Source: an uncultured virus (IMG/VR IMGVR_UViG_3300045284_000309)
Taxonomy: Duplodnaviria > Heunggongvirae > Uroviricota > Caudoviricetes
IMG/VR virus record: IMGVR_UViG_3300045284_000309
DNA length: 20,000 nucleotides
Strand: one strand, 5' to 3'
The position numbers and the translations under genes were made by a program. The notes beneath the pieces are model-generated. The model was not told the DNA's origin. It did not search any database and saw nothing but the letters and a program-made list of their open reading frames with translations. Shown piece by piece: positions 1 to 16,232 of this stretch. Each line of letters starts with the position of its first letter. Within the stretch, counting starts at the first letter, position 1.

Positions 1-87
1 AATCCCCCTACGGCCGGAACGATCCAGTTCCCCCGAATCCATCCGGATCCGGGTTTCCTAGATCCATCCGACAAAAAAGGTGGTTAC

Positions 88-1293
88 ATGAAAACGTACG
101 GCAGAAACACTCACCAGGGGTTCATCGCCGAACAATGCGAAAGTGGCAAGTCTCAATCGGAGGCTTTCGCCACACTTGAACCGCTGGTTCTGGCTCAGAT
201 TGAGCCGATGATTTTCACGCGAAACCCTGATCGTTCTATGGGGGAATCGCATCGCATGCCGAAGCCGATGGCGCAGCAATTGCTAGACCTTCGCAACGCT
301 ATCGGCCGGATCTATTCCGCGATTGAGCGGGATAGGGCCGGAACGGGTTCTACCCGCCAGACTCGGACGATTGTTGAAACCGTGGAAACGGCCGAAACTG
401 AAATCGTCGAATCACGGCCGGTAGCGTCAGGAAAGCGCCGGATCGAGACTGAACTGGAAAAGATGGAACGTCGTCTAGATGAAATCTCCAGGTTCTGTCA
501 GTCTCGCAACGAAACGGATCCGATCGATGAAATTGGAATGCGGCCGTATGAAGCGGCAGGCAGACTGATTCCCCGTGGTGTTCCGGCCGATGCGATCCTA
601 TCGGCTATCTCGATTCACTGGTCTAGAGATGCCCGGCAAGATGCGGGTATCGCAGACTTCGATTTCACTGCGTTGTCCAGGCGGTTCATGGATGAGCAAA
701 ACTGCGAATCCTACTGGCGCAATGAACGTGGCCAGACTGAACCGCTACACGAGATGTTCGGCTACGTGCTAACGCTTGCGCAAGCTCGCCAGCCGATCTA
801 TCTCTACGGAATCAAAGGTACGGGGAAATCCCATCTTGCGAGACAGCTTGCAACGTACCTAGACCTGCCGTACGGGGAAACCCCGCTATCGGCTGGCGCA
901 AGCCGTGGCGACCTGCTAGGCAGGCTTACGGCAAGCTCTGAACGGCCGTTCATCCCGGCGAAATTCACGCAATGCTACTCAGGTGGCGGCGTGTTCAATT
1001 TCGAGGAAATGGACGCGGCTCTAGCCGAAATGATTATCGTCCTGAATAACGCATTGGCCGGTGATTATTTCGAGAATTCCATGTCCGGGGAAGCGCTCAA
1101 TAAGAGCGAGAATTTCATCCCCGTGGCAACGGCCAATACCCTCGCAATGGGGGCGAATTCAAAGTACATCCGCGAGCGTTTGGACGCGGCAACTTTGGAC
1201 AGATGGAACCCCGGCCGTGTCGAAGTGAAATTCGACAAAAAACTCGCGAAGCACATGCTTTACAAGCATAGTGGCGGAGTGAAAAACAGCTAG
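88..1293 (+). CDS. CobS/MoxR-like AAA+ ATPase (phage type) with N-terminal extension
   Basis: Walker A GIKGTGKS, Walker B FNFEEMD, sensor ATANT, arginine-finger region RERLDAATLDRW; AAAGGTGG RBS upstream. Confidence 0.85.
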   Translation: MKTYGRNTHQGFIAEQCESGKSQSEAFATLEPLVLAQIEPMIFTRNPDRSMGESHRMPKPMAQQLLDLRNAIGRIYSAIERDRAGTGSTRQTRTIVETVETAETEIVESRPVASGKRRIETELEKMERRLDEISRFCQSRNETDPIDEIGMRPYEAAGRLIPRGVPADAILSAISIHWSRDARQDAGIADFDFTALSRRFMDEQNCESYWRNERGQTEPLHEMFGYVLTLAQARQPIYLYGIKGTGKSHLARQLATYLDLPYGETPLSAGASRGDLLGRLTASSERPFIPAKFTQCYSGGGVFNFEEMDAALAEMIIVLNNALAGDYFENSMSGEALNKSENFIPVATANTLAMGANSKYIRERLDAATLDRWNPGRVEVKFDKKLAKHMLYKHSGGVKNS

Positions 1294-1395
1294 ATCATTG
1301 CGGCTGTAGGGGGATTCAATAAAACGCTAGTAAGCGGGATTTCAGGCTGAATTACACTGGATTGGGAACCCCTTCCGACTAGAAGGGATTTTCCA

Positions 1396-2274
1396 ATGAC
1401 TAAGAGCAATGAGAGCTACTTTCAGATCGATTGGTTCGATTACAAAAAGATCTTGAAATCGACCGTCCTAGACGGTAAGGCTCCGACACTGAATAACGCA
1501 AACACGACGCGGAGTTTCGCAACTCATGTTGCGGATTCCGGTAGCTGGCGCGGCTATTCAGATGGGCAATTGAAGCGGTGGATTTCAGAGGGTTACACTC
1601 CCCCTGAAATGGTCGGTGGTTTGAGTAACCTCATCCCCCCGATGCGTGAAAAGAGTCGCACGATTTGGAACGAAGATGGCGATGAATTTCATGTTGACCG
1701 CGCGATGAGTGGAACGGACAATTTCATGTCCTCTCAGTCTCGCCGGGAGGTTATCCCCGGTCTAAAGATTGAGGCCGGAATCATGTTTAGTTCGGCCACG
1801 AATCACACTGTCGTCAACAATTACACTATCTGGCTTTGCAAGGTATTGTTCTCACTCGAACAAAGTGGAATTGATACTCAGCTTACGCTCGATTTCCCGT
1901 CATGGGAAAGTGTAAATGACTCGTCGCGGAAACGTGCCGGAACGTCAGGCGCGACCCTATATCACTCAGTAGTCAGAGTGAAAAAAGAGGGTGAGATTTC
2001 CGATTTCAAGTCATGGTCGGCGATGGTATCCCCGGCAGCGCTGCGCAACTTCGGTTTCGGGGCTATCTGCCTACATGCGAATGAAATAAATGGAACCCCT
2101 AGCGGTTCGATGGGTAGGGGGGTTCCGGAACGTCACGAATGGAAACTTGTATGGAATGAGGAGAGGCGAGTTTTGATCGTTGAAAACGCCTACACTTCTT
2201 CATCGTTTCCGGAATCCAAAATGACGGCCGACTTGAAAGCCGTCATGCAAAAGGTTAGCGGCAAGACTCAGTAA
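1396..2274 (+). CDS. Probable partner of the AAA ATPase (CobT/VWA-like, unknown function)
   Basis: 292-aa ORF with AGAAGGGA RBS directly after the MoxR-type ATPase; such ATPases usually pair with a VWA-like protein; no clear MIDAS motif seen. Confidence 0.55.
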   Translation: MTKSNESYFQIDWFDYKKILKSTVLDGKAPTLNNANTTRSFATHVADSGSWRGYSDGQLKRWISEGYTPPEMVGGLSNLIPPMREKSRTIWNEDGDEFHVDRAMSGTDNFMSSQSRREVIPGLKIEAGIMFSSATNHTVVNNYTIWLCKVLFSLEQSGIDTQLTLDFPSWESVNDSSRKRAGTSGATLYHSVVRVKKEGEISDFKSWSAMVSPAALRNFGFGAICLHANEINGTPSGSMGRGVPERHEWKLVWNEERRVLIVENAYTSSSFPESKMTADLKAVMQKVSGKTQ

Positions 2275-2324
2275 TTTCATCGGGGTTTCCATCCAGTGTA
2301 ATTCGGATCTATCTTCAAGATTTC

Positions 2325-2359
2325 AGGGCGGCTCTCGCGAGAGGGTCGCCCTTTTTTTT
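2325..2359 (+). terminator. Intrinsic terminator
   Basis: AGGGCGGCTCTC-GCGA-GAGGGTCGCCCT hairpin followed by a T run. Confidence 0.85.
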
Positions 2360-2382
2360 CACGATTTCACGAATTACCTTCC

Positions 2383-2407
2383 GCCCGGTGCCAGCCGGGT
2401 TTTTTTT
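2383..2407 (+). terminator. Second tandem intrinsic terminator
   Basis: GCCCGG-TGCCAG-CCGGGT hairpin followed by a T run. Confidence 0.65.
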
Positions 2408-2723
2408 GTGCTTTCATGTTGTCAGAACGGGCAATTACCAATTACAGGATCCTGTTGCCAAGCCTGGCGATTATCGATTTCAAGGATCGAATGGGAAACC
2501 GATTTCAGGGTGGAATCCGTTTTCAATCCAAAGTGAAATGTTCGCATGTCGGTGCTCGTGAAATTTCACAATCGATTCGTCGCGGGTTGTCTGGCAATGA
2601 AATCCTGGTTATTCTGGGCCGGTGGGCGGGAGTTGGTGGGCCTCGTGGGGAAGCCGTGAAATCGCTTCTACCGTGCTCAGGCTCGTGGCCAGGTGGGAAC
2701 CCTCACCAGACGGCCGGAAGCCG

Positions 2724-2880
2724 TTAGACGGGCTTAGAGAGGCTTGCAGCCATGCGGGTTTGCGAAGCACTTGCCCCTGTGAGGCTCTGTAAGCCGTTCT
2801 AAGAGGCTGGGTTGGCCGGATGACCTGGGAGTCGCATAAGGTGGTCAGAGGCGCTTAGAGAGGCTTACAGGGGCTTGAAA
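2724..2880. repeat. Three clusters of imperfect 10-bp tandem repeats (TTASAGRGGC-like), oriented +,-,+
   Basis: GCTTAGAGAGGCTTRCAG at 2732-2749 and 2853-2870; inverted cluster at 2773-2803. Confidence 0.65.
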
Positions 2881-2961
2881 AAGGTGGGCGGCATGAGCGC
2901 TGGCGTCCGGCGTGAAACTCGGCGTGGAAAGGTGCCGCACTCGTTTTGATAGTTGGGCGCG

Positions 2962-2995
2962 AAAAATAAAAACCCCCGGCGTGAGCCAGGGGTTT
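2962..2995 (-). terminator. Intrinsic terminator of the leftward genes
   Basis: AACCCCCGGC-GTGA-GCCAGGGGTT hairpin with an A run on its left. Confidence 0.8.
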
Positions 2996-3021
2996 CGATG
3001 AAGCCGGGATGCAGAACGGGC

Positions 3022-3543
3022 TTAGATCAGCCGCGCTCCGGACGGCCTTCTGAAAAAGCCGAAGTGCGGATTATCGGGAGAGGGCTTGAGCGTGGCGGTG
3101 AAAACGATGTTACGGCCGTGAAGCTCGGAGGGCATCTTGATTTCGGCCGACTCGTGAATGTTCGCCGGGACGGTTCCCCAAACCTTGTTACCGTCGATCA
3201 GGCGCACCGTCATTTTCAGCGAGTCGCCGTAATCGCTGCTGTGCCACTTGGTCGAAAGGATCTCGCCGCTGAATTCCCGCTTGCCTGCCACGAGATCCGG
3301 CGCACCCTGTGAAATCTCCTCGTCGGCCTTCTTCGTCTCCGCATGATGCTTCGCGGTGCGCATCCACTTTTCAGTTGCGGCCTTCTGCCCTTTAGTGAGC
3401 GAGCCGAACGTCTTGACCGCCGCCTGCATGTCGCGCAGAAAATCGTGGCAGTCGTCACCTTGTGAAAACAGCCAGGAGACAAGCTCGATATTTTCGAGCC
3501 GCCACTCATTCGTATCCTGCATCCTCTGTTCGTGCCGTGTCAT
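3022..3543 (-). CDS. Hypothetical phage protein, possible C-terminal OB-like beta domain
   Basis: 173-aa ORF with GAAAGGA RBS, own promoter and downstream terminator. Confidence 0.8.
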   Translation of the reverse strand: MTRHEQRMQDTNEWRLENIELVSWLFSQGDDCHDFLRDMQAAVKTFGSLTKGQKAATEKWMRTAKHHAETKKADEEISQGAPDLVAGKREFSGEILSTKWHSSDYGDSLKMTVRLIDGNKVWGTVPANIHESAEIKMPSELHGRNIVFTATLKPSPDNPHFGFFRRPSGARLI

Positions 3544-3580
3544 GAGTCAAATTTCCTTTCGCGTGTCGGAAGCTGCGACC

Positions 3581-3609
3581 ACCATACAGGCAATTTCCTT
3601 TCCTGTCAA
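3581..3609 (-). promoter_or_regulatory. sigma70-type promoter
   Basis: TTGACA-N17-TATGGT. Confidence 0.8.
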
Positions 3610-3637
3610 GAGCAATCTTGAAGGTTTCCTAAGAACG

Positions 3638-3662
3638 AAAAGAGCCGCCTTGCGGCGGCTCT
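3638..3662 (-). terminator. Intrinsic terminator
   Basis: AGAGCCGCC-GCAA-GGCGGCTCT-TTT on the minus strand. Confidence 0.8.
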
Positions 3663-3690
3663 CGTGGAGCGGTGGAGCGTGGGAGGGATT

Positions 3691-3927
3691 TCAGAAGCCG
3701 CCCTCCATGAGATGACCGCCGTAGGTTCCGATCTTTTCATCGCGAGCCGCGAAGTGATCGGACGTTCCCATGACGGCCTTGTAAAACTTGCCACGGTCGA
3801 AGCGGGGATTGTCCTGGGCGAACGTGTCAGCGAGTGAAAGCGTGAGGCACCACACGACGCCGGTTTTGTCCTGGGCGAACGCGGGAGCGAGAGTAGCGGC
3901 GATCTTGGCGTAATCCTTCATGGTCAT
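3691..3927 (-). CDS. Small hypothetical phage protein (FxxDNPRFDRxKF motif)
   Basis: ATG at 3927 after AAGGAG RBS; motif familiar from small early phage proteins. Confidence 0.8.
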   Translation of the reverse strand: MTMKDYAKIAATLAPAFAQDKTGVVWCLTLSLADTFAQDNPRFDRGKFYKAVMGTSDHFAARDEKIGTYGGHLMEGGF

Positions 3928-3962
3928 TGCAATTTCTCCTTGTTGTCGGAAGCGATGGAACC

Positions 3963-3992
3963 ACCATAGCACGAATTTCCTTCCGGTGTCAA
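3963..3992 (-). promoter_or_regulatory. sigma70-type promoter
   Basis: TTGACA-N18-TATGGT. Confidence 0.8.
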
Positions 3993-4171
3993 GGGCGATT
4001 GCAAATTACCGTTCCGGCGTCTGAGAGAGCCGCATCGGGATTGCTGCAAAGCTTCGGAGCGCTGCAAAGCCATTCGCGCCAGGTGCCGACGAAGTGCGAG
4101 CCGTACGGATGAATTTCAGACCAGCAATGCCAGCCGAGCTTCATCGCCTGGATGACGTGAAAAAGAGTCAT
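3989..4171 (-). CDS. Hypothetical protein (60 aa, MTLFHVIQ...)
   Basis: ATGA overlap with the stop of the upstream gene. Confidence 0.6.
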   Translation of the reverse strand: MTLFHVIQAMKLGWHCWSEIHPYGSHFVGTWREWLCSAPKLCSNPDAALSDAGTVICNRP

Positions 4172-4314
4172 AGCAGGCCCGCTACATACAAGCTCAGGAC
4201 TGCAATGATGAGCGAGAGCAATCCGAGTGCGAGCGATTGCGTTGTCTTGTTTCCCGGCCTCACGCAAACAAGGAAAAGAGCGGTGAGACAGGAAAGAACG
4301 ATGGCGATTTTCAT
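4168..4314 (-). CDS. Small two-helix membrane protein (48 aa; absent from the ORF track)
   Basis: MKIAIVLSCLTALFLVCVRPGNKTTQSLALGLLSLIIAVLSLYVAGLL; ATGA overlaps at both ends. Confidence 0.7.
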   Translation of the reverse strand: MKIAIVLSCLTALFLVCVRPGNKTTQSLALGLLSLIIAVLSLYVAGLL

Positions 4315-4505
4315 GACCGGCCCTTCATGTCAGAGAGTGAAATTACAGCCTCGCGCATTGCCTCATGCTCCGCTGCCGCGCTTGACGGCTCCAAGAGCAT
4401 CACCGGCTTTTTGCGCTGCCGGTAGCGCCAGTCGATTTCAGCCACGACGCCGACCATGACGACGGCTGCGACAACAACCAGGAGAGCGGCGAGGGAGGCG
4501 GTCAT
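4311..4505 (-). CDS. Small membrane protein (64 aa)
   Basis: N-terminal hydrophobic helix followed by RYRQRKK; ATGA overlaps. Confidence 0.7.
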   Translation of the reverse strand: MTASLAALLVVVAAVVMVGVVAEIDWRYRQRKKPVMLLEPSSAAAEHEAMREAVISLSDMKGRS

Positions 4506-4675
4506 GCCCGCCCCCCTGAAAACGCCTTTGGCGCTATCGCCGTGCTCGTGTCGATAACGAGCCAATCGCCCTTGATGTTGTAATTCGCAAAATCAAGCGC
4601 GGCATTCTCGCTTGAAAACGGGCCGACTAGCTCCGGAAGATCATACCCTCCGGTGAGTAGGATGAACCAGGTCAT
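4502..4675 (-). CDS. Hypothetical protein (57 aa; absent from the ORF track)
   Basis: MTWFILLTGGYDLPELVGPFSSENAALDFA...GGRA; ATGA overlaps at both ends. Confidence 0.7.
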   Translation of the reverse strand: MTWFILLTGGYDLPELVGPFSSENAALDFANYNIKGDWLVIDTSTAIAPKAFSGGRA

Positions 4676-5082
4676 GCCCGCCCCCCGTGCTTCTTTGAAA
4701 TTGTCGGCATCGACCGGCGAACCTGCTCGCTTGAAAACGAGTAGGTATGCATGAAATCGCGCTCGCGCCGTGTGAGCTTGGCAGTCGTCTTCCTGATCGC
4801 GGCTCGCGCAACGCGGGCGAGATCGGCCAGGTATTCCATGCGGATCTGAAAAGCCAGAGACGGCTTCGGAAGCTCGCCGTTTCCCTTGACCGGCTCGCGG
4901 TCGATGTGTGAAAACGTCTCGCGGTTCTCGATCACGCCGAGAAGGTCGAAGCGCACCGGCTGCTTAGCGGCCAGCTTGCGGGCCTTCTGAGCCGCCAGGT
5001 GAAGCTCGCAGGCGTAGACGAAACCGCCGCCGTACGTGAAGGTGCATCCGCACCGCTTGCCTTTGACCATTAGCTCTACCAC
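4672..5082 (-). CDS. Hypothetical protein with N-terminal CGC...CxxH motif
   Basis: GTG start after GGAAGGA RBS and CCGACA leader. Confidence 0.7.
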   Translation of the reverse strand: MVELMVKGKRCGCTFTYGGGFVYACELHLAAQKARKLAAKQPVRFDLLGVIENRETFSHIDREPVKGNGELPKPSLAFQIRMEYLADLARVARAAIRKTTAKLTRRERDFMHTYSFSSEQVRRSMPTISKKHGGRA

Positions 5083-5117
5083 TTGAATTTCCTTCCTGTC
5101 GGAGTGCTATCTCCAAC

Positions 5118-5147
5118 AGCGTATCAGACCCTGGGCCTATTGCGCAA
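5118..5147 (-). promoter_or_regulatory. sigma70-type promoter with CCCAGGG box
   Basis: TTGCGC-N18-TACGCT; spacer contains CCCAGGGTCTGA. Confidence 0.65.
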
Positions 5148-5164
5148 GGGCAGTTAGGAAATTC

Positions 5165-5592
5165 GTATCAGGGGAAGGGAAACGGCTCTCTCGCCCCGCT
5201 GTGGCAACCGGAAGCTTGAGAGCCGTACCCTCCCCCCTTTTCCCCCCAGCCCCTCCGGAACGGGTCGGTGAACCCGGAGGACGGAGGGAACCTAGCAGCT
5301 TTTCAGGGCAGATACAACTTCCCCTGGTTGGGCGGTGTTTGACTTCTGTCCTCTGAGTCCGGGGTTTGGAGAGAAAGCGCCCTGTTCGCATATGGAATTT
5401 CAGCCCCCAGCCGGTCATCGTGGCGTAAACCGCTCGATCTGCCACCGGCCACCGTCTTTTACGATTTTGCCCATACCTACGGTGCCTGCTTGAAATTCCT
5501 TATCTGTCGGCCCGACTCTCTCGGAGGTTGTCGGGCATCAATTGAAATTCATGGTGAGCCTCGCGTGTTGCGGGTTTATTCTTGTCGGAAGT
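5165..5592 (-). ncRNA. Candidate structured non-coding RNA
   Basis: Own promoter at 5599-5627, no convincing ORF, at least 7 consecutive hairpins. Confidence 0.4.
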
Positions 5593-5598
5593 GATGCG

Positions 5599-5627
5599 AC
5601 CCTACAGGATCGCTCAGAGCGTGTCAA
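5599..5627 (-). promoter_or_regulatory. sigma70-type promoter
   Basis: TTGACA-N17-TAGGGT. Confidence 0.75.
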
Positions 5628-5630
5628 GGC

Positions 5631-5674
5631 AAAAAGAAAGGGCCGGGGGAGTCTCACCTTGAACCCCGGCCCTT
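5631..5674 (-). terminator. Intrinsic terminator
   Basis: AAGGGCCGGGG/CCCCGGCCCTT stem followed by TCTTTTT on the minus strand. Confidence 0.8.
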
Positions 5675-5724
5675 CCGCCTAGCTCCTTCCGACAAGAAAG
5701 GATTTCGTTGACCACGGTAGCAGC

Positions 5725-6000
5725 TTACGGGGATTGTGTCAACCCCTGCTGCTCGATCACATGCAGAGCGGCCGTGAAACCGTCCAGCCACAGGGATGCA
5801 AGCGTAGCGGCGGCTCCGACTGTCGGCCGGATTTCAGGGGATGCCATCAGGATCATTCTGGCCCGCTGAGTCGCGCAGTATTGAGCCGATTCCATATCCA
5901 CACCCATCGCCTCGATCCCCTTGAAAAGATCCTGGGAGGCGTCGGCCAGGGCATCATTCATGCGGACGGCCGCAAAGATTTCCTCGCCGGTGATTTTCAT
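5725..6000 (-). CDS. Hypothetical protein
   Basis: 91-aa ORF with ATGA overlap and GAAAG upstream. Confidence 0.75.
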   Translation of the reverse strand: MKITGEEIFAAVRMNDALADASQDLFKGIEAMGVDMESAQYCATQRARMILMASPEIRPTVGAAATLASLWLDGFTAALHVIEQQGLTQSP

Positions 6001-6350
6001 GACTTGCGCTCCATGTTGAAGCTCTCGGCCAGGCCAGAAGTCAGCGCCTGAATTTCAACGAGCATACGCTCGTCATCCGTGAGCGTACGCCAGCCTACCG
6101 GCTCCGGTGAAAACATCGTTCGGTCAATGGCCACGACATCGCCAATTGAAATCGAGCGGCCTTCATAGCCCTTGGGCGGCGTCATGACTTCATCGACCCG
6201 CTGAAAACGACGCCAAACGTCGTCAACGGTGAAGCTCCGATCCGGGAAAGCGTCTTGGCTGTCCTCGACCCAGACAAGCTTGTAATTCGCGCTGTCCTTG
6301 AACCCCATGCAGGTCTGAACAAACGGGGCTTGATAGATTGCGATTTTCAT
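5997..6350 (-). CDS. YodL-like domain protein
   Basis: IYQ...NYKLVW...VWRRFQ...PPKGYEGRSISIGDVV matches the YodL pattern (Y..V...F..FN...P..Y.GHSLSVSDVV). Confidence 0.7.
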   Translation of the reverse strand: MKIAIYQAPFVQTCMGFKDSANYKLVWVEDSQDAFPDRSFTVDDVWRRFQRVDEVMTPPKGYEGRSISIGDVVAIDRTMFSPEPVGWRTLTDDERMLVEIQALTSGLAESFNMERKS

Positions 6351-6482
6351 TTAGGCTTCCTTTGCGCACGGCTCGCAAACGCAAGCCGTGGTGAGTAGGG
6401 GAGTCTTGAAAAAGAACCAGTTGCGCAGGGTGAAGGTGCCGCACCCATCGCATCGCGCTCTTTTGTTACAGAGTTTCCACAT
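6351..6482 (-). CDS. Small Cys-rich (Zn-ribbon) protein, 43 aa
   Basis: MWKLCNKRARCDGCG...CEPC; CCGACA leader and GAAAGGG RBS embedded in the 3' end of the HNH gene. Confidence 0.7.
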   Translation of the reverse strand: MWKLCNKRARCDGCGTFTLRNWFFFKTPLLTTACVCEPCAKEA

Positions 6483-6483
6483 T

Positions 6484-6891
6484 TCAACCCTTTCGCTGTC
6501 GGAGGTTCTTGCACTTGCGGCATTGCCTTGTGCCGGTGTCCGGACGAATGTAGACGTTTTCATCCGAAAGCAAATGGCCATTGACGCAATGCGTTTGTCG
6601 AGCCTTCATTGCCACGAAATTTTCACCACGTAGAAGGTTCTCCTGGTGCGTCACAGGCTCGCAGTGAAAAGGATTGGCGCAAGCTCGCTGTCTGCACAGA
6701 TGGTCAAGCTCCAAGTCTTCCAGGATCGGCCCGATAACAATTTCATACATGACTCGGTGAGTCAGACACGTTCGCCCTTCGACGCTTATCGTGCCGTAGC
6801 CCCTGTCAGACTTCGCGCCGCGCCATAGCCAGCAGTCCCATTCGCCACTGGCTACTGAAATTCCCTCCACTATACGAGCTTCCAGATTCAT
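6484..6891 (-). CDS. HNH homing endonuclease
   Basis: CWLWRG...GYG...HRVMYE...LDHLCRQRACANPFH...EN core and C-terminal THCVNGH...CRKC domain; ATG at 6891 overlaps a TGA. Confidence 0.9.
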   Translation of the reverse strand: MNLEARIVEGISVASGEWDCWLWRGAKSDRGYGTISVEGRTCLTHRVMYEIVIGPILEDLELDHLCRQRACANPFHCEPVTHQENLLRGENFVAMKARQTHCVNGHLLSDENVYIRPDTGTRQCRKCKNLRQRKG

Positions 6892-6929
6892 CAATGGCAC
6901 CTTGCCCGCTTCTCGCAGAGCTTCCACAT
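6891..6929 (-). pseudogene. Truncated duplicate N-terminus of the 6351-6482 gene (MWKLCEKRARCH*)
   Basis: 10 of the first 11 aa identical to the downstream copy. Confidence 0.75.
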
Positions 6930-6931
6930 TT

Positions 6932-7309
6932 TCAGTAGTCGCTCGGTCGGAGGATTGTGGTCGTTTCGCGCAGCCAGACCTTATCCGTCCAGGCCGCATC
7001 TGAAATTACCCAAAGCTCGATACCCTTGACCGTGAACGAGCTTACGATCCTTGCGCCGGATTTCACGGAAAGATCGTTCTGCCTTGCGTCGTGGGCATCG
7101 ACCTCGCCCCAATCGCCGTTGACGTGGCGAAGGAGAAGACCCTGCATCGCTGTCTGAAATTCTTGCGTGTCCGGGATTGCATCGACAATCTCGTTGTAGG
7201 CTCCGCTCGCCATCGTGACGCCAGACTTGAGGATCGAAAACCGCGAGCCTGAGACGACGCTGGAATTGCGGCGGATTGCCCTGGGATCGTTCGGCCCTAG
7301 AACAGTCAT
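6932..7309 (-). CDS. Conserved plasmid/phage protein of unknown function (RH..GDWG family)
   Basis: LLRHVNGDWGEVDAHDARQNDLSVKSGARIVSSF...LWVISDA; ATGA overlap at the start. Confidence 0.75.
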   Translation of the reverse strand: MTVLGPNDPRAIRRNSSVVSGSRFSILKSGVTMASGAYNEIVDAIPDTQEFQTAMQGLLLRHVNGDWGEVDAHDARQNDLSVKSGARIVSSFTVKGIELWVISDAAWTDKVWLRETTTILRPSDY

Positions 7310-7632
7310 GATGCGAACACCTTGCGGCACTCGCCCGCGATCTGAAATTCGTTGCAGCGCTCTTGCGAGCCAGCGGCACCGCAGACGTTGCAGACGACTT
7401 GACCGACCTCGGTCTGAAATGCTTCAAGCTCTCCGCGCTTCGTCGGAAACGCACCGTAGACGATGCCGGACGTGGAAACGAAATACTCGTCCGCTTCGTC
7501 TTCGGTGTTGTAGGCCCACCATCCGGAATCGTACTGATAGCACGACGGATCGACGGGCACCCATGCGTCCAAGGCTAGCTCGACGGTAGCACCGTCCTTG
7601 AGCGCCGCCTTGACCGTTGCGCCTGTATCCAT
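7306..7632 (-). CDS. Hypothetical protein with C-terminal CxxC...C...C
   Basis: ATG 7632 after GAGAGGA RBS; an in-frame, possibly leaderless ATG lies at 7662. Confidence 0.75.
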   Translation of the reverse strand: MDTGATVKAALKDGATVELALDAWVPVDPSCYQYDSGWWAYNTEDEADEYFVSTSGIVYGAFPTKRGELEAFQTEVGQVVCNVCGAAGSQERCNEFQIAGECRKVFAS

Positions 7633-7668
7633 GAGGATTTCCTCTCTGTCGGAAGTGTTCATGCCGAC

Positions 7669-7697
7669 AAGGTATCAGACCCTGGGATGATTGTCAA
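7669..7697 (-). promoter_or_regulatory. sigma70-type promoter with CCCAGGG box
   Basis: TTGACA-ATCATCCCAGGGTCTGA-TACCTT. Confidence 0.8.
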
Positions 7698-7714
7698 GAG
7701 GAAATTGTAAATGT

Positions 7715-8098
7715 TCACTCGCTCATGTCCCACTTGGCGAATTCGTCTTCCAGCTTCTGAAATTCACTCTGGGCTTCGGCAATCGTGCCGTAGATCCAGA
7801 TATCACGAAAACCGCGATCATCGGTCGTGACAATCCAGCGATCAACGCGGTAGAAGTGTCCGGTACTCGGGCAATCGACGTTCCCGGAGATTTCATCGGT
7901 AAAGCCGTGCCCGTAGAAGGCTTCCAGAGCGTCCATGATCGTTTTCACGGCCGGATCCAGCTTCTGGGCCTCGGCTACGATCTGGGCCTTCGTGGTGGCA
8001 GGAGTGCGGCTCTTGAAATCAGCCGCACTCTCTGCCTCGCTCGCCCACTGATGAGCGTCCTTTGAAAACTGTGCCCAAGGATCAGGCATCGTCGTCAC
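7715..8098 (-). CDS. Hypothetical protein
   Basis: 127-aa ORF in the gene string. Confidence 0.75.
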   Translation of the reverse strand: MTTMPDPWAQFSKDAHQWASEAESAADFKSRTPATTKAQIVAEAQKLDPAVKTIMDALEAFYGHGFTDEISGNVDCPSTGHFYRVDRWIVTTDDRGFRDIWIYGTIAEAQSEFQKLEDEFAKWDMSE

Positions 8099-8366
8099 TC
8101 ATCGCTGCGGCCATTTCCTTCCGCGCCCATTGCGCGAAGACGATGGCCACCGGAGCACCCTGCATCGGCCCTGGCGCGATCCGCGTCACCTGTGCGCAGT
8201 GAAAAGCGATCAACTGCGCGATCAGGGATTCGCGATCCTCAAGCGGAAATTCGGGGTTCTCGGCAATCATGCGGTCGATGTGCTCCGTCGCAGGCCCGTC
8301 GTTCAAGACTAGCTGGCGGACTTCCGTCCAAATCTGATCGAGCATCTTATCTCTGTCGTCGCTCAT
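8082..8366 (-). CDS. Hypothetical protein
   Basis: GAAGGAG RBS with CTTCCGACA leader. Confidence 0.75.
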   Translation of the reverse strand: MSDDRDKMLDQIWTEVRQLVLNDGPATEHIDRMIAENPEFPLEDRESLIAQLIAFHCAQVTRIAPGPMQGAPVAIVFAQWARKEMAAAMSDDDA

Positions 8367-8393
8367 GTCAATTCTCCTTCGTGTCGGAAGTTT

Positions 8394-8798
8394 TCAGAGT
8401 GAGTCGCAGGAACCGTAGATGATTGCATCGTAGTAGTAGGATGATGTGGAAAGGACGCGAAACTTGTCCGCATGGATGAAACCCATGTCCAGGACGCGGA
8501 GCTTGGTGCCCTTAGGAAGATTGAAAATCTGCCCGGTGTCATAAAGCTGCGCAAACCCCTCGCGGTCGTTCGCCGCTGCCGCACTCGTGGCTGCATCGAA
8601 ATCGTCACGGGTGACCGCAAATGTCACGTCCGGCTTTCCAACCCGCGTGACGTTGCCAGTTACACAACTGTCGCTGCTGGATCCGCTGGCGTTTGAATCG
8701 CCGCCGCCCGAAACGTGAGAGAAAACGATGATCATGAGAACGATGAAGCCGATGATGACAAGCGTTCCCTTGGTTGTATCGGAGTCCTTCTGAGTCAT
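8394..8798 (-). CDS. Membrane-anchored protein (TM helix, Ser/Gly linker, extracytoplasmic domain)
   Basis: LVIIGFIVLMIIVFS helix then SGGGDSNASGSSS; ATG 8798 after GGAAGG. Confidence 0.75.
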   Translation of the reverse strand: MTQKDSDTTKGTLVIIGFIVLMIIVFSHVSGGGDSNASGSSSDSCVTGNVTRVGKPDVTFAVTRDDFDAATSAAAANDREGFAQLYDTGQIFNLPKGTKLRVLDMGFIHADKFRVLSTSSYYYDAIIYGSCDSL

Positions 8799-8841
8799 TT
8801 GAATTACCTTCCTGTCGGATTGAATTTCCTTCGATGCAGCC

Positions 8842-8872
8842 AAGGTAGCATAATCGTCCTAGGGTCTGTCAA
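8842..8872 (-). promoter_or_regulatory. sigma70-type promoter with a variant box
   Basis: TTGACA-N19-TACCTT (extended -10 TGn); spacer begins GACCCTAGGACGAT. Confidence 0.65.
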
Positions 8873-8889
8873 GAGGAAATTGTAAAGGT

Positions 8890-9894
8890 TTACCTGTCCC
8901 ACTGCCAGACCCGCTTCTTGATGATGAGTGGAGCATCGTCCGGCCCCTTCACGTAGTCAGCGATGTACTTCTGCCGGTGCATGCCCAGAGAAGGGTACCA
9001 CTGGTTGCGCCAGAAGCCATGAACGATGAAACGATGGCTGAAATTCCGCTGTTCGCCCGAAGGCTCGCTCGCCTGCGTCTTGCGCCGTAGCTCGACTACC
9101 AGGATTTCACTGACCGGGAGATTGAGCCGCAGAGAATGCCTCCTGAGGCTCCGTGCGGCCTTGTAACGCGAGCGCGTGACCAGCTTCTCCCCCATGAGCC
9201 GGTTCATCACACGGATGAACAGGAGCGTCGAGGAATGCTTGCCGCCTGTCGTATCCTGCGTCCTTGAAATATCCTCCAGAGGAACCGTGAGCGCATGAGC
9301 CACAAGCCAACTCGTCTTGGCGATTGAGTCAATTTCATGGAAGGTGTGCGAGTAGTCGTCCTCGTCATCGATGCTCGACCACATGATAAAGCGGATACCC
9401 ATTTTTACTTCCACTGAAATTTCCTCACCGGCCAGTGCCCGCTTGTTTACCTCGCGGTACTCGGCGTCACCTTTGACCTCTGAAAACGTCATCTCCTCCA
9501 GGTGCCATGAAATCGCTCTCCAGGCGACCTTCTTGCCCATCTGATCGATCACAACAAACGGCTCCTCCAGGTAGGCGAAGCCTGAGCGCAGAAAGAAATC
9601 CGACTCGACCACTGTCTCGCGCTCGTTGAAAGAATCCATTGCGTTGTAAACCAGTTCCTGCATTTCACCCGTGACGTAGATCGGCTCTGCCGCCATCATG
9701 TCGGGAAGCGCGTTGACGAAGCAAGCTGCCGACGTGCTCGCTTGAGCCGTCCCATACTTGCCCATGCGATCATCGAGCCAGTATTTGAAATATTTTTTTC
9801 CCCACTCGGAGGAGACGAAGCCGATGATTTCATGCTGCGCGGAGAGAGCCTTCTCCCACGGCTGCGGAACGTGAGGTTGATTCATCGCGCTCAT
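8890..9894 (-). CDS. Conserved phage protein of unknown function
   Basis: 334 aa; C-terminal HRFIVHGFWRNQWYPS...HR.KYI..YVKGPDDAPL motif familiar from actinobacterial phages and elements. Confidence 0.8.
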   Translation of the reverse strand: MSAMNQPHVPQPWEKALSAQHEIIGFVSSEWGKKYFKYWLDDRMGKYGTAQASTSAACFVNALPDMMAAEPIYVTGEMQELVYNAMDSFNERETVVESDFFLRSGFAYLEEPFVVIDQMGKKVAWRAISWHLEEMTFSEVKGDAEYREVNKRALAGEEISVEVKMGIRFIMWSSIDDEDDYSHTFHEIDSIAKTSWLVAHALTVPLEDISRTQDTTGGKHSSTLLFIRVMNRLMGEKLVTRSRYKAARSLRRHSLRLNLPVSEILVVELRRKTQASEPSGEQRNFSHRFIVHGFWRNQWYPSLGMHRQKYIADYVKGPDDAPLIIKKRVWQWDR

Positions 9895-10370
9895 GCTGCG
9901 ATCCTCTCACTGATAATGAAATCTTCGAGATTGAGCCGGTTCTCGAAAATGATCGTGAGGAAGCTGCCCGACCATGAATCGTGATAGTGCTTCATGAGCG
10001 GTTGCCAGTCAATTTCAACACCGATGTAGCTCCACTCGGTTTCATCCATCTTGACGATGGAATTTCGCCATGTCGGATCGCAGACGATGCCATCGCGAAG
10101 CAACCAGGCGTGATGTACCGGCATGAAGCCTGAAAAGCCGTAGCCCTCGCAGTAGGTCACGTCATCTCTGAAAGCTGCGTAGGTGAGGCAGTTTGAAAAA
10201 CAGCGGCCCATCGGCATCTTGCGCAGGCCGGTGCCGCGAAAGCTCGTCCACTTCGATCCTGTCCACTCTTGCCCGTATTTCAGGATCGTCCGCTCGTGGA
10301 TCCCATGCTCTGGAAATCCGAGCTTGTCGTAAGCGTCTACGTGCTGCTGTAGGCAGTCTTTAGCTGTCAT
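9891..10370 (-). CDS. Hypothetical protein with putative Cys-His-Asp (transglutaminase/papain-like) triad
   Basis: GRCFSNC...YCEGY...HHAW...DPTW; start re-called to ATG 10370. Confidence 0.65.
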   Translation of the reverse strand: MTAKDCLQQHVDAYDKLGFPEHGIHERTILKYGQEWTGSKWTSFRGTGLRKMPMGRCFSNCLTYAAFRDDVTYCEGYGFSGFMPVHHAWLLRDGIVCDPTWRNSIVKMDETEWSYIGVEIDWQPLMKHYHDSWSGSFLTIIFENRLNLEDFIISERIAA

Positions 10371-10635
10371 GACCGAACATTTCATTGATCTCGCGAGAAA
10401 GGTCGGGGTTGCCGCTGTCGAACAGGGGAAGCTTCGGCTTGCGCTTGGCAAGATCGATCTGCTCGTAGTGAAATCTCCACTCGGGATGATCCTTGTAATA
10501 TTTGTCGATCTCCCAGTTGACCTGAGCCTCGGTAGCGAACAGGCCCAGAACCTCGATCCCACTGAAAACGCTGTCCGTGTCGATCACAGCCTCGGGCCGG
10601 TAGACCTGGAGAATGTATGTCTTGAGGATAGTCAC
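10360..10635 (-). CDS. Hypothetical protein
   Basis: GTG after CCGACAGAAAGGA leader. Confidence 0.75.
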   Translation of the reverse strand: MTILKTYILQVYRPEAVIDTDSVFSGIEVLGLFATEAQVNWEIDKYYKDHPEWRFHYEQIDLAKRKPKLPLFDSGNPDLSREINEMFGHDS

Positions 10636-10658
10636 AATTTCCTTTCTGTCGGTTTACT

Positions 10659-10751
10659 GCTACCCGCCCCGCTCTCAGGAATCGAACCTGAGCCTCCACC
10701 GTATGTTTCTGGCGGCGCTCTACCTAGCTGAGCTAGAGCGGAGCGGGTAGC
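10659..10751 (-). ncRNA. tRNA-like RNA (non-canonical; core 10668-10742)
   Basis: TA-GCTC-AGCTAGGTA-GAGC D arm, CCGCC/GGTGG stem with 10-nt loop, TCAGG-TTCGATT-CCTGA T arm, 16-bp acceptor stem, no CCA. Confidence 0.8.
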
Positions 10752-10757
10752 CAGACC

Positions 10758-10786
10758 ACTCTATCATCCCTGGGTCGATTCGTCAA
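10758..10786 (-). promoter_or_regulatory. sigma70-type promoter of the tRNA-like RNA, with CCCAGGG box
   Basis: TTGACG-AATCGACCCAGGGATGA-TAGAGT. Confidence 0.75.
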
Positions 10787-11000
10787 GGGCAATTTCCTCG
10801 ACCGTGACAATCGCTACCAGGCGAGCGTATGGAACCTCGTTCACCTTGCCGACGCGGTTGATGATTCCGTTGCGCGGGACAAAGCGAACAAACTTCTCGC
10901 CGTCGTGCTCCACGATTTCAGGCTTGTCTTGCGTGTAGTATGTAGCGGTGTCGTTCACGCTCACACCCTCGTTCACGATAACCTGAAATTCAGATGACAC
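10764..11000 (-). CDS. Hypothetical protein (78 aa)
   Basis: GTG 11000 after GAGGAG RBS. Confidence 0.7.
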   Translation of the reverse strand: MSSEFQVIVNEGVSVNDTATYYTQDKPEIVEHDGEKFVRFVPRNGIINRVGKVNEVPYARLVAIVTVEEIALDESTQG

Positions 11001-11277
11001 TATTCTCCTCTCCGACTTCCTCGGCATAGCGGGCTTCCTCGGCGGCTGCAAGCTCTTTGAATTTCCTTGCCCGCCGACGCCAATGCCCCGCCATGAGGTT
11101 TGTCTTGCGCTTGACTTGCCCTTTTTCATGCTTGGCCATCTGCTCGTAGATCCAGCATTGATCTTTCGCATTGTCCGAGAGCACGACTAGCTCATCGGGA
11201 ATCAGGCCCAGAAGATCGACGGCAATTTCAAGATCGTCGGCCTCCTTGCTCATGCCGTGCGTGTTCCACAAACCCAT
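10990..11277 (-). CDS. Hypothetical protein
   Basis: AAAGGAGG RBS, TAATG overlap. Confidence 0.75.
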   Translation of the reverse strand: MGLWNTHGMSKEADDLEIAVDLLGLIPDELVVLSDNAKDQCWIYEQMAKHEKGQVKRKTNLMAGHWRRRARKFKELAAAEEARYAEEVGEENSVI

Positions 11278-11609
11278 TACCGCTGTCCTCCTTTGAGCCG
11301 TACTGTAATTAGCCCTGCGAAATCTTCATCGGTCGGCCGGGTCGGATCGACGTTGTTCCAAGTGCCCTCGATATCGGGATGGCCCTGGATCGTCTCGCCC
11401 TTGTAAACCGTGAGGTTGACATTCTTCGGCTTGGCCGGATCGAAGAATTTCACGAAACCGATGGTCATGTCCTTGAGCGCGTAGTAGATGAAGCAGGTGA
11501 ATCCCCAGATCATCCAGCCGTAGAAGATACCGGATGGCCCGTCCTCGTGAAATCCCCACCAGGCGCATAGCGCCAGAAGCGAGAGTGGAATTATCCTGTG
11601 CATTATCAT
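11277..11609 (-). CDS. Membrane protein (two N-terminal hydrophobic segments)
   Basis: IIPLSLLALCAWWG and IFYGWMIWGFTCFIYYAL. Confidence 0.7.
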   Translation of the reverse strand: MIMHRIIPLSLLALCAWWGFHEDGPSGIFYGWMIWGFTCFIYYALKDMTIGFVKFFDPAKPKNVNLTVYKGETIQGHPDIEGTWNNVDPTRPTDEDFAGLITVRLKGGQR

Positions 11610-11631
11610 CCCTGGGTCGATAAAAGGACTG

Positions 11632-11671
11632 AAAAAAGAGGGACGGAACCATTTCTGATTCCGCCCCTCTC
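11632..11671 (-). terminator. Intrinsic terminator
   Basis: GAGGGGCGGAA/TTCCGTCCCTC stem followed by T6 on the minus strand. Confidence 0.75.
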
Positions 11672-11679
11672 TAGGAATT

Positions 11680-12519
11680 TCACCGGCGAGCCGTCGTCTT
11701 CTTCTTGACGGGCTTGCTGGCCGTGCTCCTGGCCGTCGTCGTCGTGGCCTTCGGCTTGTTCTTCGATCCAGGCGGACGACCGCGCCGCTTGGGTGCCGCT
11801 GCGGGCTTCTGTGCGGCCTTCTGCGGCTTTGCCTTCTGCGGGGTGGTCTTCCGGGTAGTCGAGCGCTTCGCCGTGCTCCTGGCGGCTCCTGTGGCTCCGG
11901 ACTTGCGGTACGTGCCCTGAGTGCCGTACTCGGCGCGGTTGGTGGACTTCTCGTGCTGGCCCGTCTTCATCGCGAAATCCCAGGCCGTCCGTGAAATCCG
12001 GTACTGGAGCATCGTCTCAGCAGACGCTTGAGTGCGCTTGCTGCCGTCCTGCATCTTCCGGCCGACGAAATCCCAGATCTTCGGAAGCAGTGCCGTGAAA
12101 ACCTTGGCCCGGTTCCCACGGTATTTCCGAAGGGACTTGACGATCAGGTCGGGCGGCGATCCGACGCGGGCGTTCCAACCGTCCGTGACGTTGAAATCCA
12201 CGTCCTTGAGCATCTCACGGCCGGACTCGTCAGCGGTCGAGCGCTTCGCCTTGCCCGTCGTCGCGGACTTTGCGGCAGGCTTCGACTTGACGGCCGTCTT
12301 CGTTGCGGCCTTCGGAGGGCGACCCCGGCGAGCAGGCGTCTTGGTTGCCGTGCGAGTCTTCGTCGCGGGCTTCCGAGTCGTCTTGGTCTTGGTCGATCCA
12401 CCGTTCATGAATTGCACGATGAGCGCCTGAAGCTCGTCAGCGCTTGTTGCGCTGCGAATGTCACTGGCCGGGATACCCAGCCCCTTCGCGCTCTGTCTCA
12501 GTTGTCCGAGAGTTGGCAT
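11680..12519 (-). CDS. Histone H1-like basic DNA-binding protein with two AT-hooks
   Basis: K/A/T/P-rich arms; PARRGRPPK and PKRRGRPPGSKNKPK AT-hooks flank a globular core; CAGGAG RBS, own promoter and terminator. Confidence 0.8.
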   Translation of the reverse strand: MPTLGQLRQSAKGLGIPASDIRSATSADELQALIVQFMNGGSTKTKTTRKPATKTRTATKTPARRGRPPKAATKTAVKSKPAAKSATTGKAKRSTADESGREMLKDVDFNVTDGWNARVGSPPDLIVKSLRKYRGNRAKVFTALLPKIWDFVGRKMQDGSKRTQASAETMLQYRISRTAWDFAMKTGQHEKSTNRAEYGTQGTYRKSGATGAARSTAKRSTTRKTTPQKAKPQKAAQKPAAAPKRRGRPPGSKNKPKATTTTARSTASKPVKKKTTARR

Positions 12520-12574
12520 CTTGTGTCTCCTGTTTTTGTTGCTTGCTTGGACTGGAAATCTGTGCTGCCCCTCC

Positions 12575-12602
12575 AGAGTAGCAGCCCAAAAGGAAATGTC
12601 AA
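12575..12602 (-). promoter_or_regulatory. sigma70-type promoter
   Basis: TTGACA-N16-TACTCT with TGn extension. Confidence 0.7.
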
Positions 12603-12973
12603 GGGGTGGAGGAAATATTTTTTCGGTAGGAAATAATCACTGTGCCAGAGCCATTTTTCTCGTCTATCTCGGTCACGGCCGCTGCCTCGATCCCGATTCG
12701 CCCGGAGTCAATGAGCCTGGCCAGTCGAGCAGCCACGTCGCGAGCGATGTAGCCGATGTGCATGTCCGGCCGTATCTCCGTGAGAACGACTTTCAACGCA
12801 TTCGGGTCGAACCGATTTTCAGGTTCACGCTCAAGCCGGATGGCCAGCGGGGTATGGTCAGCCAGTTCACCTTGAAGCTGAACCCCGACTCTGTAGTTCA
12901 TGCCGACCAGCGGAGCGTAGATATTTCTCTCTGGGTGAAATTTCTTATGCGGTGGTTTGACCATGCTATTCAT
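12599..12973 (-). CDS. Stand-alone HIRAN domain protein
   Basis: LVGMNYR...LEREPENRFDPNALKV...HIGYIARDVAARLA; start re-called. Confidence 0.85.
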   Translation of the reverse strand: MNSMVKPPHKKFHPERNIYAPLVGMNYRVGVQLQGELADHTPLAIRLEREPENRFDPNALKVVLTEIRPDMHIGYIARDVAARLARLIDSGRIGIEAAAVTEIDEKNGSGTVIISYRKNISSTP

Positions 12974-13292
12974 CCTTGGGTGGCCGTCCGACTCGGTGGT
13001 TTCGGATGATCTCCACAATTTCATCCCTTTGGGCAGGACTCCAAAGACGGATTGCCAGCGTTCCACGTTGGACTCTCTGGGCCTCTGGAATCCTGCCCGC
13101 TCTTTCAAGCTTGCGCAACCAAGACGGATCGCAGCCGACTTCACGCGACATTTCAGCAAGGGTCAGATAGTCCTTGTACCGCTTTGGCTTGAAATATGTG
13201 ATGTCTCTGGGCATTGTTCCACCTGGCTTGATGTGTGTGTTGGGAATGGCCGGTCTGCTTCGGCGTTTCTTTGTCGGCCTCCCCATTTTCAC
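12966..13292 (-). CDS. MerR/excisionase-like HTH DNA-binding protein
   Basis: YLTLAEMSREVGCDPSWLRKLERAGRIPEA..R.....RLWS; GRP motifs at both termini. Confidence 0.75.
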   Translation of the reverse strand: MKMGRPTKKRRSRPAIPNTHIKPGGTMPRDITYFKPKRYKDYLTLAEMSREVGCDPSWLRKLERAGRIPEAQRVQRGTLAIRLWSPAQRDEIVEIIRNHRVGRPPKDE

Positions 13293-13810: not shown

Positions 13811-13811
13811 G

Positions 13812-14036: not shown

Positions 14037-14086
14037 AGCGAGAGGATCCTTCCTTTGATTGGAATTCCATTTTGCTTGTACGTGCT
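14033..14086 (-). pseudogene. Orphan duplicate of the helicase C-terminus (STYKQNGIPIKGRILSL*)
   Basis: Matches the helicase end STYKRNGIKIKSRLGSLG*; its TGA overlaps the next ATG. Confidence 0.75.
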
Positions 14087-16226: not shown

Positions 16227-16232
16227 GGCTCC

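Follow-up and report, generated by a model that had tools for sequence, protein, structure and literature searches.

We analysed a 20,000-nucleotide (nt) stretch of DNA from an uncultured virus (IMG/VR record IMGVR_UViG_3300045284_000309; Caudoviricetes), hereafter the window, which represents the early region of an uncultivated phage found in soil metagenomes. Gene starts in this region repeatedly carry a leader module, consisting of a YTCCGACA box, a Shine-Dalgarno (SD) site and a start codon, and a single copy of this module is reversed. This copy occupies 5683-5708 on the plus strand, between the TAA stop codon of the minus-strand gene 5725-6000 and a strong intrinsic terminator. In our favoured reading, to which we give a probability of roughly 0.45, the reversed copy would be the seed of a small RNA (sRNA) directed against many leaders at once, and thus part of a functional antisense RNA. 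We favour this reading because promoter, seed and terminator are found together, because the copy is intact and because it is retained in strains that lack its inverted partner. An earlier note on this DNA had proposed a seed-plus-terminator sRNA at this place; the anatomy it described stands, and is strengthened by a sigma-70-type promoter at 5742-5714 (minus strand) that the note had missed.

A repeated leader module and its single reversed copy

The window holds 12 strong copies of the leader module, a family that comprises the 9-mer CTTCCGACA and looser forms (YTCCGACA and CCGACA). The exact 9-mer occurs six times, five times on the minus strand and once on the plus strand at 5686-5694, compared to 0.21 occurrences expected, and none of 200 shuffled sequences reached six. 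When one mismatch was allowed, the count of ten against 5.97 expected was reached by 14 of 200 shuffles and was not significant. Eleven of the 12 copies point in the same direction as the gene or transcript that they head, the copy at 5683-5708 being the sole exception. Ten copies are associated with genes, among 32 gene starts examined (31 listed starts and that of gene 10360-10635). In these ten, the box is separated from a purine-rich SD site by 0-4 nt and the start codon follows 11-20 nt past the box, at exactly 14 nt in six cases. The SD site often reads GAAAGGAAATT, for which the window has seven matches with at most one mismatch (0.49 expected); this string is also present within the spacers of promoters 3609-3581 and 3992-3963, at 3592-3602 and 3974-3984 on the minus strand. 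Five leader copies are located just downstream of sigma-70-type promoters, near the predicted transcript start; others sit within operons. Pairing between the pyrimidine tract of the box and the SD site is possible, although the resulting hairpins are weak, with z < -2 in only one of the 12 folded leaders; the SD-sequestering hairpin in the leader of gene 1396-2274 has a predicted energy of -9.1 kcal/mol (z = -2.30). The same box and SD site are found behind a terminator-promoter junction in a distant relative, the 2.2-kb locus L026, whose proteins are 28-41% identical to two proteins of the window (41% for the homologue of gene 6351-6482).

When the 11 co-oriented copies alone were used to build a weight matrix, the reversed copy scored 21.3 bits, compared to 12.8-27.8 bits for the training copies and 11.8 bits for the next best match on either strand. 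No other reversed match in the window exceeds 8.9 bits, which bears out the earlier claim that one copy alone opposes the local gene direction. The core of the reversed copy is intact (9/9), and judged by its sequence it is a genuine homologous copy rather than a chance match. We could also confirm that the minus strand reads AAATCCTTTCTTGTCGGAAGG at 5705-5685, after the stop codon of gene 5725-6000 and ahead of the terminator. On the plus strand, 5685-5705 agrees with the leader of gene 1396-2274 (1371-1391) at 19 of 21 positions, and in the antisense duplex the two differences become a G:U pair and a U:U mismatch. Similarly, 21 of 24 positions agree with the leader of gene 88-1293 (57-80). 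In an ungapped comparison the reversed copy shares 21 of 28 positions with each of these plus-strand leaders, which share 16 of 28 with one another, a likeness that could reflect either selection for pairing with them or an origin in a plus-strand gene start. Finally, the 13-nt inverted repeat reported between 5686-5698 and 5579-5591 is present, 100% complementary and with the arms 94 nt apart.

The window has eight promoter-like sequences of the form TTGACA-N16-18-TANNNT, every one of them on the minus strand, compared to an expectation of 0.17, and no shuffle out of 200 contained eight. Because of this excess, any single match is unlikely to have arisen by chance. The match at 5742-5714 overlaps the end of the upstream gene: its -35 hexamer lies within codons 87-88, and its spacer contains the stop codon together with a TG at -15/-14. 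Its -10 hexamer ends 8 nt before the antisense stretch at 5705-5685, and at promoters 3609-3581, 3992-3963 and 5627-5599 the -10 hexamer ends 7-10 nt before the leader box. Given that transcription commonly begins about 7 nt past the -10 hexamer, the RNA would start near 5708-5705, that is, 0-3 nt ahead of the antisense stretch. From promoter to terminator, the stretch of about 75 nt holds no open reading frame (ORF), and neither strand showed a coding signal or a family match. We therefore consider that the element is probably its own transcription unit of about 75 nt, read from the promoter 5742-5714, as well as part of the 3' untranslated region (UTR) of the upstream gene. Among the other promoters, a string formed by the spacer and an extended -10 element, AGGGTCTGATAC, is identical in three (5121-5132, 7672-7683 and 16236-16247, minus strand); it has five matches with up to two mismatches against 0.88 expected, with looser copies at 18716-18688 and 10786-10758, and may mark a regulator site or a second promoter class.

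The upstream ORF, 5725-6000 on the minus strand, is a real gene. Its coding score is +0.157, compared to -0.080 and -0.027 for the overlapping plus-strand ORFs, and five homologues of its product, 74-88% identical and encoded on contigs of 4-68 kb, are each exactly 91 amino acids (aa) long. Leu87 and Thr88, whose codons form the TTGACA hexamer, are invariant in all six sequences while positions 86, 89 and 91 vary, which is a weak hint that the promoter is kept.

The terminator 5677-5631 ends both the upstream operon mRNA and the candidate sRNA; it had escaped a simple terminator scan, its loop being longer than 8 nt. Folding of the whole 106-nt 3' UTR gave -43.2 kcal/mol (z = -2.21; 6 of 200 shuffles as stable), and folding of the 79-nt RNA, which comprises the seed hairpin and the terminator, gave -36.5 kcal/mol (z = -2.35; 3 of 200 shuffles as stable). 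Within the seed, 5702-5684 is predicted to form a 7-bp hairpin (UCCUUUC/GGAAGGA) with a UUGUC loop, whose bases are complementary to the GACA that is invariant in the leader box. None of the Rfam families, c4 among them, gave a match to the window at E-values up to 1. The features expected of an sRNA gene, namely its own promoter, a closing terminator and a seed complementary to ribosome-binding regions, are found together on the evidence of sequence. The coordinates of these and other features are given in Table 1. The 3' UTR of another gene, 3691-3927 (3664-3690, minus strand), is likewise pyrimidine-rich and has CCCTCC and GCTCC tracts immediately ahead of its terminator; it resembles an anti-SD sequence and lacks a complement to the leader box.

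Table 1. Features of the window and predicted net pairing energies of the 79-nt candidate RNA
Feature	Positions	Strand	Remarks	Net pairing (kcal/mol)
Candidate sRNA promoter	5714..5742	-	-35 TTGACA at 5742-5737, 17-nt spacer, -10 TACCGT at 5719-5714	
Predicted RNA 5' end and seed	5684..5708	-	antisense of leader module, 5705-5685	
Intrinsic terminator	5631..5677	-	GC-rich stem of about 13 bp, then UUUCUUUUU, U-rich tail	
Reversed leader module copy	5683..5708	+	core CTTCCGACA at 5686-5694, SD-like GAAAGGA at 5696-5702, TTG at 5708-5710	
Upstream gene	5725..6000	-	conserved hypothetical protein, 91 aa; stop TAA at 5727-5725	
Next promoter	5599..5627	-	TTGACA-17-TAGGGT; directly after terminator; first part of cassette	
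Accessory cassette	5306..5626	-	about 320 nt (promoter, copy D, non-coding RNA); present here, missing from common variant	
Leader copy D (5' end of cassette transcript)	5579..5591	-	at about +1 of cassette transcript; 13 nt perfectly complementary to seed; no SD site or real ORF after it	-14.4
Leader module of small Cys-rich gene 6351-6482	6483..6508	-	CCTCCGACA variant	-14.2
Leader module of gene 88-1293	57..87	+		-13.8
Leader module of gene 3022-3543	3550..3575	-	downstream of promoter 3609-3581	-13.8
Leader of gene 8394				-10.5
Leader module of gene 7306-7632	7633..7658	-		-10.4
Leader module of gene 1396-2274	1369..1395	+		-9.4
Gene 88-1293	88..1293	+	AAA ATPase, CobS-like	
Gene 1396-2274	1396..2274	+	weak DUF7192 match	
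Other encoded proteins	in window		superfamily-2 helicase, two HNH endonucleases, PD-(D/E)XK nuclease, HIRAN-domain protein, CobS-like AAA ATPase	

Predicted leader pairing and retention among strain variants

Pairing of the 79-nt RNA was predicted with 60-nt windows placed around each of 31 gene starts and with the cassette transcript at its 5' end, taking as net energy the cofold minus both single folds; unrestricted duplex energies gave long, loop-rich duplexes everywhere and were dropped in favour of these values. Across a background of 1324 60-nt windows on both strands the net energy averaged -4.0 kcal/mol (standard deviation 2.5; 5th percentile -8.6), and leader sites make up nine of the 15 best background windows. 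A longer form of the 3' UTR gave the same ranking, with the leaders of genes 3022, 88 and 1396 at the top. In these models, pairing between the RNA and the leaders is thermodynamically reasonable and leader-specific.

We next considered which parts of this arrangement are shared between strains, using contigs from four public sequencing runs, three of DNA (X3, X8 and X10) and one RNA library (X12). All three DNA runs contain a variant in which 5281 is joined to 5627 with 24 other letters in between (depth 11.4 in X3). These letters are, compared by eye, a diverged copy of about 5282-5305, so that about 320 nt are missing. The cassette-bearing form is represented in X3 (depth 4.16) and in contigs of the RNA library. 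Since the arm 5579-5591 sits in this cassette, the 13-bp inverted repeat results from an accessory segment and is not a fixed structure, and the suggestion that the element acts generally in cis on the downstream RNA did not hold up. The cassette-less variant nevertheless keeps both the reversed copy and the terminator, the latter with a 5-nt deletion in its loop (at 5656) in variants from X3 and X8. The cassette itself contains a 4-codon mini-ORF and a 19-codon ORF and shows no coding signal, and RNA-library contigs lie over 5327-5572.

The RNA-library contigs additionally cover 5069-5236; none lies over 5573-5791, which is uninformative either way. Three of them have an end lying 18-27 nt inside the starts predicted for promoters 3609-3581, 5627-5599 and 7697-7669, which is at most a weak hint that these promoters are active, as carry-over of DNA is possible. 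Similar differences between strains were found elsewhere. Contigs of X3 and X8 skip 170 nt (4499 to 4670) that hold a 57-aa ORF (4502-4675) and are flanked by perfect 17-nt direct repeats at 4500-4516 and 4670-4686, which looks like repeat-mediated cassette loss. An X10 contig skips 450 nt (6444 to 6895, with three other letters between) inside the HNH endonuclease gene 6484-6999, suggesting that this homing-type endonuclease is a mobile insertion, and a further skip spans 89 nt. Because of these indels of 170, 450 and 89 nt, we conclude that the early region is reshuffled between strains. In addition, a contig from the Joint Genome Institute (JGI), L015 (1-1063), is 100% identical to window 3075-3663 over 589 nt, and its remainder beyond the terminator 3663-3640 has no match in the window at E-values up to 1e-5; this break may be another cassette boundary at a terminator.

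Taken together, these observations would fit the following sequence of events. A discrete RNA of about 75 nt would be made, the 5' part of which forms the 7-bp hairpin, and its UUGUC loop would meet the GACA(A/G) of leader modules on phage mRNAs. Pairing could then extend across the YTCCGACA box and the SD site, so that ribosome binding would be blocked or cleavage by RNase invited. In this way a single RNA might lower the expression of about ten phage genes, the best predicted partners being 88, 1396, 3022 and 6351. In cassette-bearing strains the 5' end of the neighbouring non-coding transcript would be a partner as well, either as a further target or as a decoy. A stronger version, in which a master anti-leader sRNA gates the whole gene class on both strands and the cassette transcript, with its perfect 13-nt target, serves as a decoy that sets a threshold, seems to us doubtful.

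Several observations weigh against an anti-leader sRNA. The complementarity to the leaders exists in part by construction, since the copy is reversed, and some non-leader windows equal the leaders in predicted pairing, for example those at 4741 (-15.5 kcal/mol) and 12061 (-14.1 kcal/mol), both on the minus strand. Because the seed is partly self-paired, the cost of pairing is raised, and the leader of gene 1396-2274 reaches only the value given in Table 1 in spite of its 19 matching positions. The relative L026 has the leader module and the terminator-promoter-leader junction but no reversed copy. Debris of the modules is also found elsewhere in the window, including a degenerate reversed copy of promoter 3992-3963 at about 2360-2400 (20 of 24 positions identical). 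Finally, two X3 contigs both end at 5705, and strains may differ just upstream, in the promoter region.

Alternative explanations of the reversed copy

The strongest competitor, though in our view an unlikely one, is that the reversed module is a neutral relic of cassette shuffling, a plus-oriented gene start left behind at a terminator-promoter junction and without function, with a promoter that is either fortuitous or transcribes the downstream DNA. Cassettes are often gained and lost between strains here (skips of 170, 345, 450 and 89 nt), the copy is closest to the two plus-strand leaders, as if a gene start had moved without inversion, and the promoter remnant at 2360-2400 demonstrates that such debris persists. 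Moreover, Cluster K mycobacteriophages each carry one unexplained reversed start-associated sequence according to the accessible part of their description (PMC3203893), and we could confirm this for phage Anaya. However, the actual debris at 2360-2400 is degenerate, whereas the reversed copy has kept its complete core and a high matrix score and sits exactly between a well-supported promoter and a terminator. The chance of finding a promoter within about 40 nt upstream on the right strand is, as a rough figure, 2 in 10,000 (from 0.17 per 40,000 positions). A transcribed RNA that is complementary over 13-21 nt to about ten ribosome-binding sites would, in addition, hardly be neutral. Independently of this question, the promoter remnant at 2360-2400 partly forms the second of two tandem plus-strand terminators in this part of the window.

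Alternatively, the YTCCGACA box might be bound by a phage or host protein at the level of DNA, as an asymmetric operator comparable to the stoperators of mycobacteriophage L5. The reversed copy would then be a further operator, which in cassette-bearing strains could pair with copy D to loop out promoter 5627-5599. Box copies do lie at about +1 to +15 of five promoters, which is a usual operator position, GAAAGGAAATT occurs inside two promoter spacers, and the inverted arms flank promoter 5627-5599 with their centres 107 bp apart, close to ten helical turns. We nevertheless regard this as improbable. The box is tied to translation starts, in all ten gene-associated copies, and not to promoters: where there is a promoter, the distance from the -10 hexamer to the box is 7-13 nt, and several copies lack a promoter altogether. 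Common variants do not have the D arm, and no DNA-binding regulator or repressor candidate was found among the 31 ORFs scanned in the window, which spans 20 kb out of a contig that measures at least 70 kb. The same 9-mer is also kept in the distant L026, whereas repressor specificities usually drift at 28-41% protein identity. That the 13-bp arms flank promoter 5627-5599 might also recall an invertible promoter. This idea gained no support. One arm is missing from the common variants, no strand-changing joint was seen among the joints listed for the four runs (in which contigs drop rare forms), and there was no recombinase among the 31 ORFs scanned.

Of slightly lower standing still is a role in cis, either as a leader or attenuator in which promoter 5742-5714 serves the downstream genes, or through folding back of the 3' UTR onto leaders of its own operon mRNA (7306 and 6351), which would tune the translation or stability of that mRNA. 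A promoter followed by a terminator within about 75 nt is also the anatomy of an attenuator, and by eye the tract UCCUUUC has two possible partners that read GGAAGG, one in the 3' arm of the seed hairpin and the other in the 5' arm of the terminator. Consistent with a fold-back, the operon mRNA that ends here, of which gene 7306-7632 is the first from promoter 7697-7669, starts with one leader module (7647-7655) and contains another (6497-6505). Read-through would not be needed, however, because the downstream genes have promoters of their own, namely 5627-5599 in cassette-bearing strains and a AGGGTCTGATAC-type promoter about 40 nt before gene 4672-5082. Furthermore, neither the minimum-energy nor the centroid structures contained an alternative antiterminator fold, and the common variants lack the 13-bp pairing with the downstream RNA.

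We consider it very improbable that the copy is the leader of a real plus-strand gene, a 53-aa ORF that would start at TTG 5708, antisense to gene 5725-6000, the outcome that the earlier note had named as fatal to its proposal: although the full anatomy of box, GAAAGGA and TTG is present, with the TTG 13 nt after the box and so within the genuine range, and the copy clusters with the plus-strand leaders, a suitably spaced start codon is estimated to arise by chance about one time in four, the ORF (5708-5869) scores -0.080 compared to +0.157 for the minus-strand gene, whose product is conserved at full length, no Pfam or PHROG family matched it at E-values up to 0.1, and the plus strand between 5200 and 5700 holds no promoter with a score above 7 of 12, all eight strong promoter matches being on the minus strand. 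On present evidence the reversed copy is not the leader of a plus-strand gene.

Genomic setting, related systems and implications

Apart from the two plus-strand genes at its start (88-1293 and 1396-2274), the window is coded on the minus strand from about 3000 to 20000. Between the converging gene blocks, about 750 nt (2275-3021) show no coding signal; this gap contains the tandem plus-strand terminators (2325-2352 and 2383-2400) and, at 2723-2880, direct and inverted repeats of a GCTTAGAGAGGCTTACAG-like unit, and may serve as an origin or a packaging site or encode a structured RNA. ARAGORN additionally reported a tRNA-like gene with a four-base anticodon (aaca) at 10666-10742 on the minus strand, for which Rfam gave no tRNA match at E-values up to 1; it directly precedes the leader module and gene 10360-10635.

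A collection of phage genomes contained no relative of the window, by DNA or by protein, and searches of IMG/VR with an exact 25-mer, four proteins and the promoter-leader pattern gave no usable one. The lone IMG/VR match, L001, was rejected as a relative (30% identity, E = 4e-4, best leader-matrix score 11.6 bits). Relatives of the 91-aa protein were found neither in JGI metagenomes nor in genomes of GTDB.

A search for the promoter-plus-box pattern returned 33 metagenome loci, of which 16 have a single conserved promoter element in common, in which TTGACA-N17-TAGGGT precedes CTTCCGACA by 7 nt, with the spacing of the phage promoter 5627-5599. In all seven of these 16 loci that were scanned with Rfam (L002, L003, L006, L011, L016, L031 and L034), a gene for selenocysteine tRNA (tRNA-Sec) lies just downstream. 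The matches of this element to genomes (L036-L038) are all to metagenome-assembled genomes (MAGs) of Acidobacteriota, one of them from Pyrinomonadaceae. One such MAG, of 5.7 Mb, shows no enrichment of the 9-mer, with 76 matches compared to 55 for a reversed control. We take the tRNA-Sec link as probably a coincidence and not as a sign of a host-wide element or a host assignment, although it could hint at the host. Because the box is not enriched in the Acidobacteriota MAG, the leader module is a feature of this phage lineage.

Among known systems, the c4 antisense RNA of the immI region of phages P1 and P7 offers a precedent for a phage non-coding RNA that pairs at the ribosome-binding region of an mRNA, with complementary bases in loops, as far as the available part of the source describes it (PMC12197685). 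The candidate RNA resembles c4, to the extent that this description goes, in that a loop presents bases complementary to the leader, which is the arrangement of antisense RNAs that initiate pairing from a loop. The two differ in origin and reach: c4 is processed out of the very operon transcript under its control and finds both of its target sites within a single mRNA, whereas the candidate RNA appears from its sequence to have its own promoter, and its seed mirrors a module found before about ten genes on both strands. Membership of the c4 family is not indicated, given the Rfam result above.

In its anatomy the element also resembles sRNAs of the enterobacterial DapZ and MicL type, which are made from a promoter inside the upstream gene and share the terminator of its mRNA. 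As in that type, the predicted RNA lies after a stop codon and shares the terminator, its candidate promoter reaches into the last codons of the upstream gene, the seed is located close to the 5' end, and the terminator hairpin with its U tail makes up the 3' end. It differs in belonging to a phage and not to a chromosome, in that its targets would be the repeated leaders of the phage itself, and in being known here from sequence alone.

The leader module also invites comparison with the start-associated sequence (SAS) of Cluster K mycobacteriophages, described, in the part of the original report available to us, as a short asymmetric motif before the start codons of non-structural genes that is almost always co-oriented with them, is of unknown function and occurs once in reverse in each K1 genome; the same text leaves open RNA as its binding partner (PMC3203893). 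Its function was still untested in 2025, according to the accessible part of a later paper (PMC12699233). In Anaya, 16 of 17 SAS matches are forward and one is reversed. The reversed one (L035 39871-39883; record 59870-59882) lies in the non-coding gap of 385 bp that separates gp96 from gp97, about 155 nt past a strong terminator, and a simple scan detected no promoter around it. The phage described here and the SAS-bearing phages thus share a repeated, asymmetric motif that is co-oriented with genes and has a lone reversed copy (11 + 1 here, 16 + 1 in Anaya). They differ in layout, as the 13-bp SAS GGGATAGGAGCCC holds the SD site and lies 3-7 bp before the start codon, whereas the YTCCGACA box lies 0-4 nt upstream of the SD site and 11-20 nt before the start. 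The reversed SAS of Anaya also lacks the promoter-seed-terminator anatomy found in the window, and as an analogy the parallel is suggestive only.

A further likeness is to the promoter-early stem-loop (PeSL) cassettes of T4-type phages, in which a terminator-like hairpin, an early promoter and a leader stand between early genes and are shuffled as modules. Terminator-promoter-leader junctions of this kind are found at 3663-3564 and 5673-5583 and in L026, and the cassettes vary between strains. To our knowledge, PeSLs have not been reported with an antisense copy of the leader or as a separate non-coding unit. A search of the open-access literature, mostly at the level of titles and the openings of abstracts, likewise found no phage sRNA described as antisense to a leader repeated among the genes of the same phage.

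The case made here concerns a single uncultivated soil phage and is built on computational analysis. Phage regulatory RNAs are known mostly from temperate coliphages, each with one or a few targets, and motifs repeated at gene starts, such as the SAS of Cluster K, have been without explanation since 2011, going by the accessible part of their first description (PMC3203893). The co-occurrence in one genome of a leader repeat and a unit holding its exact complement provides a model of how a common handle could place a class of genes under the control of one sRNA. If the stronger version of this model is true, the start-associated repeats of other phages, for example those of Cluster K with their one reversed copy, may also be handles for RNA-based control of a gene class.

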